Below, in pieces: positions 36,557 to 38,965 of a stretch of 64,000 bases of DNA (position 1 is its first letter; each line of letters starts with the position of its first letter). Origin of the DNA: an uncultured SAR86 cluster bacterium (lineage in GTDB: Bacteria; Pseudomonadota; Gammaproteobacteria; Magnimaribacterales; D2472); assembly GCA_902557645.1 (NCBI GenBank), contig CACEAP010000004.1, forward strand, positions 80,649 through 144,648, given 5' to 3'. The notes under the pieces are model-generated. The model was not told where the DNA came from and made no database searches. It worked only from the letters and a program-made list of their open reading frames with translations. A program made the translations under genes and the position numbers.

Positions 36557-36644
36557 GAAACTGCTAAAAACTATACATAATTAATTAATTAAAAAATCTA
36601 AATAATGTTATGTTATTAAGTAACTTAATTTATTGGAGAGAAAT

Positions 36645-37415
36645 ATGAAAAAAATAAGTTTATCTTTTATGGCGCTTCTAGCTTTAGCTGCCTGTAATTC
36701 ATCAATGGATGATGAAGTTGCAGTTGCTAGAGAAGGTTCACCGGCTAATGAGGTGGTTGAGTATGTTTGGCACTATGAAGGACCTGATTTTAGCCAAGAA
36801 AATCTAGATATGTTGGTTGATAAATGGAACTCAATGATTGATGCAAGAGGTTATGAGATGAATGGAGCAAATATCCTTACTCCTCGTGGAGAATCTAATG
36901 CAGATTTTATTTGGGTAATGCTTTGGCCTTCCATGGAAGCAAGAGACGCGGCATGGACTGACTGGATGGAGAGTGTCGATAGCGAATGGCAAGAAGCTAT
37001 CGATGGAATAATGAGTGTTGATTTTGATAATGTTTATGCATTTAAACCAACCGTTCAAAGAAATGCATCCGTTCCAAATCAAAGTAGCACATTTGAAAAT
37101 GAATTTAATTTCTGTAATTTCAACGAAGGTTATGATGAAAATGATCTTGCAGCATTTGAAATGGATTTTGCTAATTTTCTTGATGAAACTGAGGCAAGGG
37201 ATGGTCCTGATGGATTCTGGTATGTCATGCTTGAACCTTATTTTGAAGGAACTGAAGACAATCCTTTAGTAGATTATGTATGGTTAAGTCTTTGGACTGA
37301 TATGGATGAAAAGAATACAGGTTACCAAAATTATGGTTCTACAAGTTTGCCTATGGAAGCAGATAATTTTAGTACATGTCAAAGATTTTCTTTTTCAGGA
37401 AAAGCTATAAGATAA
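36645..37415 (+). CDS. acidic Trp-rich lipoprotein with two homologous about 110-aa modules, unknown function
   Basis: Lipobox LALAAC after MKKISLSF. The SD GGAGAG precedes the ATG at 36645. Modules share DFIWVMLWPSMEARD / DYVWLSLWTDMDEKN. Confidence 0.7.
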   Translation: MKKISLSFMALLALAACNSSMDDEVAVAREGSPANEVVEYVWHYEGPDFSQENLDMLVDKWNSMIDARGYEMNGANILTPRGESNADFIWVMLWPSMEARDAAWTDWMESVDSEWQEAIDGIMSVDFDNVYAFKPTVQRNASVPNQSSTFENEFNFCNFNEGYDENDLAAFEMDFANFLDETEARDGPDGFWYVMLEPYFEGTEDNPLVDYVWLSLWTDMDEKNTGYQNYGSTSLPMEADNFSTCQRFSFSGKAIR

Positions 37416-37434
37416 TAGTTATATGATTATAAAA

Positions 37435-37459
37435 AACGGGCTTTTAGCCCGTTTTTTTT
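37435..37459 (+). terminator. Rho-independent terminator of the lipoprotein gene
   Basis: AACGGGC-tttta-GCCCGTT followed by TTTTTT. Confidence 0.8.
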
Positions 37460-37473
37460 AATAAAATTTAGGC

Positions 37474-37693
37474 AAAAAAAAACAGAGCTAAGCTCTGTTT
37501 CTTCAGTTCGAGTTCCTTAGGGGTCCGAAGTGAGATTCTCTTCAGCTCCTCGGATTCTTTCTCTTGAATCCTTGGTGGGTTTCTAAGCTCTTTTTTATCG
37601 TCGACTCTTAGATACGCTTTCACCCTTAGGTCTCTTTCTGCTTTTTCTCTCTAACTCCCGTCTGCAGTTGTTTGTTAGTCGGATCAGCAGGTA
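37474..37693 (-). ncRNA. candidate orphan small RNA (about 215 nt, purine-rich, GC-enriched); identity unknown
   Basis: Bounded by its own promoter (37700-37727) and its own terminator (minus strand: CAGAGC-tta-GCTCTG followed by T9, at 37474-37499). It has no ATG and no SD-linked start. It contains the hairpin GGATTC-n8-GAATCC and several A(N)GGA-type motifs. Confidence 0.4.
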
Positions 37694-37699
37694 AAGTTA

Positions 37700-37727
37700 A
37701 TATTACGGGAATTTTATATCTTGTCAA
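37700..37727 (-). promoter_or_regulatory. near-consensus sigma70 promoter of the candidate sRNA
   Basis: The minus strand reads TTGACA (37727-37722), a 16-nt spacer, then TAATAT (37705-37700). Confidence 0.5.
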
Positions 37728-37804
37728 CACTTTATTTAAAAAAAATTAAATTAATTTACCTTTTTTTAAAATATGGTTTAATTAACTAATAAATAGGGAG
37801 CATA

Positions 37805-38965
37805 ATCATAAATAAACGCGAATCATTTCTACCTAAAACTCAACCAATTAAAGAATACTCTGATAGCTCAAGTGAGTCTCTCCAAAGACTTCAAGAGATT
37901 GCAAATAGTCTACCTAAATTACTTTTAACTAGTAATGTACAAAATACAATTAATAAACTCTCAACTGATGATTTATCTGTAAATGAGCTATTCATTGAGG
38001 GTAGGAATAAGAATATTAGATTGGCTATGGTGCATCTTAGTTTTATTTCCCATGCTTATATTTGGGGCGGTCTTAAGCCTGAAAAGTTATTGCCTGAGGT
38101 TCTTGCAGGACCATGGGTAAAAGTAGCGAAAGCCTTAGGTAGACCACCTATACTAAGCTATGCAAGTTATTGCCTGGATAACTGGTTTAAAATCAATAAA
38201 GAAGAAAATATTTCACTAGATAACGTCGCATTAATTACAAACTTTTTAGGTGGAGTTGATGAAGATTGGTTTGTAACTATTCATGTATGTATTGAAGATG
38301 CAGCATCAGAGGCTATTATTGCTGCACAAGAAATAGCTGAGATGACAAAAGAAAATTCAGAAGATGAAATATTACAAAAATTAAAATTAATATCAAAATC
38401 ACTTAATAAAGTTAATAAGATTTTTTCACGAATGCCTGAGAAATGTGATCCTTATATTTACTATCATAGAGTGAGGCCATTTATATTTGGAACAAAAGAT
38501 AATCCTGATCTAAAAAATGGATTGATATACAAGGGTGAATTTAAAGATAAACCGCAATTTTATCGAGGTGAGACTGGAGCTCAAAGCAGTATTATGCCTT
38601 TCCTTGATGGCGCCTTAGGTATTTATCATACTAAAGATAGCTTAAGACATTATTTAAATGAGATGAGAGAATATATGCCTCCTGAACATAGAGCTAGAAT
38701 AGATAAGGTTGAAGAAATTTCTCAAGCAAAATCTTTAATAAATGAATCGCAAAACCTTACAGATGAATATAATTTATGTTTAGAGGAAATTAGGGCATTT
38801 AGAGCTTTACATTTAGAATTTGCTGGCACTTATATTCATAAACAATCGCAGATTAAAAATCCATTTGGTCGGGGTGGTTCTACAATAACAGGCACAGGTG
38901 GAACGCCTTTTATGAAGTACTTAAAGAAACATAGAGACGAGACTGAAAATCAAAAAATTAAATAA
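37805..38965 (+). CDS. indoleamine 2,3-dioxygenase (IDO) family protein; start codon non-canonical or decayed
   Basis: GTGGTPFMKYLKKHRDET, GAQSSIMPFLDGALG, MREYMPPEHR and AYIWGG are colinear with eukaryotic IDO1. Homology continues upstream of the first canonical start (TTG at 38021), through IANSLPKLLL…. That frame is open back to the stop at 37790 and contains no ATG, GTG or TTG. Confidence 0.8.
   Translation: MINKRESFLPKTQPIKEYSDSSSESLQRLQEIANSLPKLLLTSNVQNTINKLSTDDLSVNELFIEGRNKNIRLAMVHLSFISHAYIWGGLKPEKLLPEVLAGPWVKVAKALGRPPILSYASYCLDNWFKINKEENISLDNVALITNFLGGVDEDWFVTIHVCIEDAASEAIIAAQEIAEMTKENSEDEILQKLKLISKSLNKVNKIFSRMPEKCDPYIYYHRVRPFIFGTKDNPDLKNGLIYKGEFKDKPQFYRGETGAQSSIMPFLDGALGIYHTKDSLRHYLNEMREYMPPEHRARIDKVEEISQAKSLINESQNLTDEYNLCLEEIRAFRALHLEFAGTYIHKQSQIKNPFGRGGSTITGTGGTPFMKYLKKHRDETENQKIK

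Follow-up and report, generated by a model that had tools for sequence, protein, structure and literature searches.

IMES-1 RNA in a SAR86 cluster bacterium: a known marine RNA gene with two conserved self-complementary loops

Introduction

What is encoded by a short, G+C-rich intergenic segment that appears to carry a promoter and a terminator of its own? The question is raised by positions 37474–37727 of a 64,000-nucleotide (nt) stretch of DNA from an uncultured SAR86 cluster bacterium (GCA_902557645.1, contig CACEAP010000004.1, positions 80,649 to 144,648), referred to here as the window. An initial annotation, made from the letters alone, described the segment as a candidate novel small RNA (sRNA) gene; it offered as possible identities a sponge for the regulator CsrA/RsmA or one of the abundant unassigned sRNAs of marine metatranscriptomes. 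We report that the segment holds a gene for IMES-1 RNA, and that two loops of this RNA are self-complementary in every full-length copy of the family that was collected, a property that may point to self-association.

Results and discussion

Identification of the IMES-1 gene

The feature that answers the question of identity is the following:

37498..37688, minus strand: IMES-1 RNA (Rfam RF02034), full-length covariance-model match, model positions 1-191 of 191

At 188 bits (E 2.1e-42), this match exceeds the family's gathering score of 81, and its alignment is gap-free. When the whole window was scanned with Rfam at gathering thresholds, two matches were obtained: one tRNA and IMES-1. The covariance-model check proposed in the initial annotation gave no match at E<=1 to CsrB, CsrC, RsmX, RsmY, RsmZ or 6S RNA between 37300 and 37900, where the other weak matches at this level all fall on neighbouring terminators. 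The window copy shares with the Rfam family its helices, conserved loops, junctions and marine origin, and nothing that defines the family differs; it belongs to the commoner type I (L1 CUGCAG, L2a GUCGAC; see below). We regard it as virtually certain that the segment is a gene for IMES-1 RNA in a gammaproteobacterium of the SAR86 clade (Magnimaribacterales). The sRNA is consequently not novel, as it has its own Rfam model, and the guess at an abundant marine metatranscriptome sRNA was the right one.

IMES-1 ('Identified in Marine Environmental Sequences') was reportedly first described by Weinberg et al. in 2009, and is said in the same work to outnumber 5S rRNA in some metatranscriptomes. 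Its location in SAR86 is likewise already known, having been reported in 2012: an abundant non-coding RNA of metatranscriptomes is placed there in a carbon-assimilation region of SAR86, and the authors infer from this that carbon assimilation is under RNA-based control (Dupont et al. 2012, PMC3358033). That paper does not use the name IMES-1. The clade and the neighbourhood are the same, however: the SAR86A scaffold JH611156 (locus L023) has IMES-1 between an indoleamine-2,3-dioxygenase (IDO)-like gene and the genes for pyruvate kinase and pyruvate dehydrogenase (PDH) E1. Judging from position and clade, we infer that the abundant RNA is IMES-1. The abundant RNA is reportedly linked to a psRNA of Shi et al. 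2009. A full-text search of the literature returned nothing relevant under 'IMES-1'.

Secondary structure

The Rfam structure and the terminator were mapped onto a MAFFT alignment of 104 distinct copies. Three features describe the fold in the window:

37641..37688, minus strand: 5' domain P1, an outer 4-bp stem and an inner 5-bp hairpin with the large loop L1 (Rfam structure line)
37520..37629, minus strand: three-hairpin junction domain, closing helix P2 with hairpins P2a, P2b and P2c
37552..37571, minus strand: hairpin P2b, GGAUUC-AAGAGAAA-GAAUCC

Across the alignment, 90.6% of cells are paired, in comparison to 72.1% after shuffling (none of 500 shuffles reaches the observed value) and at most 50% in slid registers. 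The covariation score is 0.475, against 0.15 for shuffled alignments and at most 0.107 for slid registers. Compensatory changes occur in 29 of 41 pairs; the initial annotation had suggested looking for covariation in related genomes. Covarying pairs make up 8/9 of P2a, 4/5 of P2b and 4/6 of P2c; P2 has GC at column pair 78:189 in 77 copies, and AU there in 27. Helices 1 and 2 of P1 are 79-98% paired and every one of their pairs covaries. Pairing is only 45% at the innermost two pairs of P1b (helix 3), where the MAFFT alignment is gapped, and in the retrieved copies the outermost P1 stem has its two outer pairs weak or shifted. P2a, P2b, P2c and the terminator were recovered independently by RNAalifold, and the minimum free energy z-score of the single window sequence is -3.15. 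IMES-1, as read from these alignments, folds as a 5' hairpin domain (P1) followed by a three-hairpin junction (P2, P2a, P2b, P2c).

Of two hairpins drawn in the initial annotation, the first (GGAUUC paired with GAAUCC) is P2b, which is 99.6% paired. The second, a UUCG...CGAA stem presenting UAAGGAA in its loop, was rejected because its arms belong to the covarying helices P2c and P2: UUCGG forms the 3' side of P2c, and UAAG that of P2. The purine loop of P2b is invariant in the retrieved copies, with six of its positions fixed by the pattern used for retrieval (see below). The conserved purine-rich single strands are GAAAGC, which is invariant independently of the search, and CCACCAAG, AAGAGAAAG and AAGG(A)GC, all three of which are partly fixed by that pattern.

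Self-complementary loops

Two of the four hairpin loops contain a self-complementary hexamer:

37662..37667, minus strand: L1 hexamer CUGCAG, with flanks AA...A
37600..37605, minus strand: L2a hexamer GUCGAC, followed by GAU and A6

The hexamers are self-complementary in 104/104 copies for both loops; they remain so in all 170-172 copies that could be read after 120 metagenome contigs had enlarged the set to 172 distinct full-length copies. L2b and L2c have a self-complementary hexamer in 0/104 copies. L1 is found only as CUGCAG (approximately 130 copies), CUCGAG (approximately 36) or UUGCAA (4), all perfect palindromes, with two double-compensatory switches. L2a is more variable, with nine variants in 170 copies (GUCGAC, GUCGAU, GCUAGC, GUCGGC, GUUAAC, GUUGAC, GGUACC, GUGCAU and GUGCGC), all of them self-complementary by Watson-Crick or G·U pairs; 0/510 L2a cells are unpaired. 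In the pair count of alignment A1, L1 is 100% paired (GC in 78 copies, CG in 26), and the cells scored as 'other' for L2a represent a subtype whose hexamer MAFFT set four columns away.

All 36 distinct L2a loops have the hexamer, compared to a mean of 15% and a maximum of 36% after shuffling; among distinct L1 regions the figure is 57/58 (shuffled mean 28%), the sole exception being a 5'-truncated chimaera. A neighbour-joining tree was built with the hexamers masked; the changes counted on it by parsimony number at least 18 for L2a and 2 for L1, with no pair broken. When a 6-column window was moved along the 130 type I copies, only the L1 and L2a windows were 100% self-complementary, and the next best reached 80% and 62%. 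Other frequent self-complementary hexamers (UUUAGA, GAGCUU) occur in 62-80% of copies and lie in stems, and were set aside as by-products; a quasi-palindrome in L2c (GAGAAUCUC) was dropped, as it is not conserved in the family. In 62/172 copies the L2a hexamer is self-complementary on the transcript strand only through G·U pairs (GUCGAU, GUCGGC, GUUGAC, GUGCAU, GUGCGC), an argument for selection on RNA rather than on DNA.

Inside one loop, the halves of a 6-nt palindrome are unable to pair with one another; the simplest account is thus pairing between two molecules. The calculated self-duplex energy is approximately -10 kcal/mol for each of the window loops and ranges from -5.9 to -11.2 for the family variants. 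We put at somewhat better than even the chance that IMES-1 self-associates through kissing contacts of L1 and L2a, giving dimers or chains. Evenly balanced, in our estimate, is the further proposal that IMES-1 is a self-assembling RNA in which lineage-specific loop palindromes would serve as kissing-loop 'codes' driving the formation of homodimers or open chains. The L1/L2a codes would be CUGCAG/GUCGAC, CUCGAG/GCUAGC or GGUACC, and UUGCAA/GUCGAU, each common to all paralogues in one cell.

Comparable RNAs are known. The dimerization initiation site (DIS) of human immunodeficiency virus 1 (HIV-1) is a 6-nt palindrome flanked by A's in a kissing-loop dimerizing RNA. IMES-1 would resemble it in having a purine-flanked 6-nt self-complementary loop sequence (AA-CUGCAG-A), here maintained by compensatory change. 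The ornate bacterial RNAs GOLLD, ROOL and OLE were recently shown to form homo-oligomers (PMC12286853). IMES-1, too, is a structured bacterial RNA without an assigned function, and it came out of the same discovery programme; in contrast to ROOL and GOLLD, it is far smaller (approximately 190 nt) and has two self-complementary loops, and its dimerization is a prediction from sequence. The loop palindromes are mentioned neither in the Rfam structure line nor in the searchable literature, a search that did not include the primary IMES-1 paper.

Transcription unit

The promoter and terminator region consists of five features:

37728..37760, minus strand: A/T-tract region, UP-element-like, directly upstream of the -35 hexamer, which a conserved GTG abuts
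37722..37727, minus strand: -35 hexamer TTGACA (consensus scan)
37700..37705, minus strand: -10 hexamer TAATAT, spacer 16 nt (consensus scan)
37474..37497, minus strand: intrinsic terminator CAGAGC-UUA-GCUCUG + U9, stem 37497-37483 and U9 37482-37474 (read from the sequence)
37431..37459, both strands: second terminator-like hairpin A6-CGGGC-UUUUA-GCCCG-U8, symmetric, 15 nt past the IMES-1 terminator (read from the sequence)

The IMES-1 promoter is of a near-consensus sigma-70 type. In an anchored alignment of 148 promoters (consensus AAAAA.A.TT.AATTTTTTT.AAAAAAAGTG-TTGACA), 105 copies have the full TTGACA and 143 have TTGAC; the -35 is at least 90% conserved in a 110-copy alignment, and the -10 pattern TAnnnT is kept across the family. 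The A/T tracts upstream of the -35 are phased and conserved and resemble an UP element, and we infer from this resemblance that they may act as one. Transcription is predicted to start at approximately 37693, a position derived from promoter spacing. At the other end, the five outer stem pairs of the terminator are invariant in 104/104 distinct copies, as are the first 7 U of its tail, and the loop-closing pair is kept in 66/104. RNAfold folds the terminator and extends it to a 13-bp A/U-flanked hairpin. Overall, the -35 TTGAC, the -10 TA...T, the terminator stem and the U-tract are 90-100% conserved (110-copy and 104-copy alignments), and over 100 homologous copies, almost all of them from SAR86 genomes, retain both promoter and terminator. 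The locus is a free-standing non-coding gene of approximately 215 nt.

Much of the initial annotation holds at this level: the same promoter (TTGACA-16-TAATAT) and terminator had been named there, the segment does lie between protein genes, and its G+C content is raised (0.44 across 37500-37699 versus roughly 0.26-0.35 in adjoining windows). Its purine fraction had been put somewhat too high, at about 70%; the transcript body is 66% purine. A hidden small protein was considered and rejected, as the 51-amino acid (aa) open reading frame (ORF) at 37468-37623 shows no conservation; the longest ORF has a median of 19 aa over 172 copies, and 40 copies have no ORF at all.

A simple consensus terminator scan of 36900-38300 returned 0 sites, despite the presence of two textbook hairpin and U-run terminators on the minus strand (37474-37497 and 37431-37459). 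The hairpin at 37431-37459 has only sub-threshold, terminator-type Rfam matches; it would be expected to end the convergent ORF 36633-37415 and to back up IMES-1 termination. That ORF (plus strand, 260 aa, no Pfam match) lies between IMES-1 and a prepilin peptidase gene and forms a singleton cluster among the flanking ORFs of other IMES-1 loci. On the other side is a divergent IDO-like gene on the plus strand (37793-38965; PF01231, E 4e-89). It has no ATG, GTG or TTG before 38021, and its domain match begins at residue 6 of the frame opened at 37793. The IDO-like proteins of relatives begin M-(T)-H-(S/T)-F-L-P-K, from an ATG, and the corresponding region of the window reads ..ATC ATA AAT AAA CGC GAA TCA TTT CTA CCT AAA after a GGGAG Shine-Dalgarno sequence. 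The gene has either a non-canonical start (ATA at 37808 or ATC at 37805) or a damaged one.

Distribution and copy number

Relatives were retrieved with a 34-nt degenerate pattern from the P2b region, unique within the window, that was run on a species-representative genome collection. The pattern was found in 116 genome stretches, nearly all titled SAR86 cluster bacterium; carriers include SAR86A, SAR86E, the closed chromosomes CP097973 and OX044367, and the cultured isolate HIMB1674. The handful of carriers under other taxon labels are probably mis-binned. The closed HIMB1674 genome (CP151794) contains a full-length IMES-1 (145.5 bits) on the minus strand at L057:5697-5880; the paper describing this isolate and its supplements make no mention of non-coding RNA, csrA or hfq. 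The genes flanking the window copy are likewise in keeping with SAR86 (gamma-glutamyltranspeptidase, prepilin peptidase, glucokinase, GH3, sodium:solute symporter, pyruvate kinase and malate synthase G), and the window is only approximately 70-76% identical to any of the loci compared.

One copy is present in the window. A profile search found two copies at seven genome loci, some of them approximately 300 nt apart, and twelve assemblies have copies at two loci. Small SAR86 genomes carry between one and several IMES-1 genes, in some cases as tandem copies. In SAR86 single-cell genomes (L025, L041, L097, L102), tandem duplicates lie approximately 300-325 nt apart, and every duplicate has a promoter and a terminator of its own; in L063, L072 and L080 two copies are separated by 1.2-3.4 kb. 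The IMES-1 core lies 300 nt or less from a contig end in 59/120 metagenome loci (L120-L239) and acts as an assembly breakpoint, which would fit several near-identical copies on either side of variable gene cassettes.

Three matches came from the viral database IMG/VR. In the genome of a picorna-like RNA virus (L118:1-8721, UViG_3300016740_000053; RNA helicase, RdRP_1, Rhv and dicistrovirus capsid domains), IMES-1 is fused to the 5' end; it is internally truncated (model positions 19 to approximately 150) and the terminator is absent. L118 is almost certainly a chimeric metatranscriptome assembly, and it shows IMES-1 in RNA-derived data. L117 and L119, from the same project and with phage tail and capsid genes by ORF calling, likewise end in pieces of IMES-1. 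A phage-borne IMES-1 was therefore rejected: all three matches are pieces at contig ends and do not support a viral gene.

Genomic context

Alignment A1 (L057, which is HIMB1674, L002, L003 and others) shows two main, lineage-specific subtypes. Type I copies (AACUGCAGACGGGAG...) adjoin IDO-like or GH2 genes. Type II copies (AACUCGAGACGAAGAA...), approximately a quarter of the total, lie between the genes for electron transfer flavoprotein-ubiquinone oxidoreductase (ETF-QO) and a DUF1285 protein. A rare third type, with UUGCAA in L1, is confined to metagenomes (L133, L148, L208, L237). By count, 34 copies including that of the window are divergent from an IDO-like gene, 21 including that of HIMB1674 are between ETF-QO and DUF1285, and 13-14 are downstream of a GH2 glycosidase.

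Frequent neighbours include pyruvate kinase, PDH E1, a sodium:solute symporter, glucokinase and malate synthase. On the same strand, pyruvate kinase starts a median of 44 nt past the IMES-1 terminator (28 copies), PDH E1 76 nt and the symporter 86 nt, gaps that may be underestimated as ORF starts were called mechanically. With such short gaps, terminator read-through may feed central-carbon genes in some lineages. Most copies, that of the window among them, have a convergent downstream neighbour or none. Convergent genes for DUF1285 and the oxaloacetate decarboxylase (OAD) beta subunit end 2 nt and 9 nt from the IMES-1 terminator on the opposite strand (e.g. L057, L054), so that one hairpin probably terminates both transcripts.

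Proposed mode of action and alternatives

The account that we favour, and hold to be reasonably probable, is that IMES-1 is a highly expressed, structured, trans-acting RNA of SAR86 that probably self-associates via its two palindromic loops and binds a partner. It would act as a very abundant, compactly folded RNA particle and not as a CsrB-type sponge. The L1 and L2a palindromes would pair one IMES-1 copy with another by loop-loop (kissing) contacts, producing dimers or chains, and the exposed purine-rich single strands could bind an abundant putative partner, either a protein or a pyrimidine-rich RNA. Where the gene lies approximately 44 nt upstream of pyruvate kinase, read-through of the terminator may additionally couple IMES-1 to central-carbon genes.

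Several points weigh against this account. Self-association is a prediction from sequence, and the partner is putative. The three L1 variants are all perfect DNA palindromes, so that L1 might be a DNA-level site. Copies that share a genome have matching L1 and L2a hexamers in 19/19 cases; this is weak evidence, as such copies are close, nearly identical duplicates and their agreement is not independent. The evidence for expression in this organism is indirect, consisting of RNA-derived chimeric contigs and the literature, and for extreme abundance the sources are, reportedly, Weinberg et al. 2009 and Dupont's wording.

Four of the alternatives concern what the RNA does. That IMES-1 is a classical base-pairing sRNA regulating carbon-assimilation mRNAs in trans, in line with the inference of Dupont et al., would suit its position in the SAR86 carbon-assimilation region (PMC3358033), its many central-carbon neighbours and a Rho-independent terminator with a U-tail such as many sRNAs possess. 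We think it unlikely: conservation takes in most single strands and junctions and is not confined to one short seed, and covariation maintains a multi-helix junction; a purine-rich RNA cannot pair with Shine-Dalgarno sequences; approximately a quarter of copies are in the unrelated ETF-QO/DUF1285 context; and complementarity to 48 translation-initiation regions of the window does not exceed chance (best empirical p 0.011 in 480 tests). The same neighbours bear on a cis-acting leader or attenuator that would control a downstream same-strand gene, notably pyruvate kinase, by regulated read-through. The gaps of 44, 76 and 86 nt leave little room for a separate promoter, yet they may be larger than called, the downstream gene is convergent or missing in most copies, the window included (with DUF1285 and OAD-beta, on the opposite strand, ending 2 and 9 nt away), and the terminator is invariant and strong (U9); we consider a leader improbable. 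The CsrA/RsmA sponge of the CsrB/RsmY/RsmZ type proposed in the initial annotation, in which GGA motifs in loops would sequester CsrA dimers, we judge very improbable. IMES-1 shares with CsrB, CsrC, RsmX, RsmY and RsmZ the character of an independent, terminator-ended, multi-copy, purine-rich gammaproteobacterial RNA gene, is probably abundant, sits among carbon-metabolism genes and does contain the AAGGAU, GAGGAG and CGGGAG motifs listed in that annotation. It differs from them in what defines a sponge. GGA occurs at the frequency expected from composition, the outcome named in advance as refuting the idea: 5 in the window copy versus 5.1 ± 1.3 in dinucleotide shuffles (P=0.70), with a family median of 5, a mean z of -0.3 and no copy at z>2. 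Three of the four hairpin loops (L2a, L2b, L2c) have no GGA, the GGA of L1 is missing in most type II copies (GACGAAG, GACGAGG; a few GACGGGAG), and the near-universal junction AGG(A) is AGGC in several copies (AAGGAGC to AAGGCGC). None of the Csr/Rsm covariance models matches at E<=1. As the initial annotation had already remarked for this locus, there is no GacA box: the best matches to TGTAAG-N6-CTTACA in 184 upstream regions equal those in shuffled sequence. A tblastn search for csrA, hfq, proQ and gacA in 1.67 Mb of IMES-1 neighbourhoods found none, which is uninformative as this is not a whole genome, and literature searches on SAR86 with CsrA or Hfq gave nothing relevant. Least credible of all is a 6S-like mimic of open promoter DNA that sequesters RNA polymerase. 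IMES-1 and 6S RNA are both small RNAs, with their own promoter and reportedly great abundance (for IMES-1, according to Weinberg et al. 2009), but covariation supports a hairpin with a three-hairpin junction, not a long interrupted helix with a central bubble, and the 6S model gives no match at E<=1.

The remaining alternative concerns the loops themselves. Their palindromes could be DNA-level features, such as sites for a dimeric DNA-binding protein or restriction-type sites, in which case IMES-1 would be a monomeric protein-binding RNA. All L1 variants (CTGCAG, CTCGAG, TTGCAA) and the commonest L2a variants (GTCGAC, GCTAGC, GGTACC, GTTAAC) are indeed perfect palindromes as DNA. The 62/172 copies with G·U-only L2a hexamers, however, would be mismatched on DNA or on the opposite strand, and the L1 and L2a sites differ from each other and between lineages, unlike the sites of one DNA-binding protein. 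We rate this explanation slightly lower still than a cis-acting leader, and prefer pairing between the loops of two IMES-1 molecules.

Conclusions

As a discovery, the locus is ordinary: a catalogued RNA family has been found again in a clade where it had already been located. SAR86 is among the most abundant bacterial groups of the surface ocean. Retention of one to several IMES-1 copies in very small genomes suggests a role that is probably central to SAR86 physiology, and the function of IMES-1 is now experimentally reachable, given that the cultured isolate HIMB1674 carries a full-length copy. The maintained self-complementary loops argue against the CsrA-sponge guess and provide a cheap, falsifiable hypothesis of self-association; if it is true, a 190-nt RNA of SAR86 would join the newly recognized class of RNA-only multimeric assemblies.

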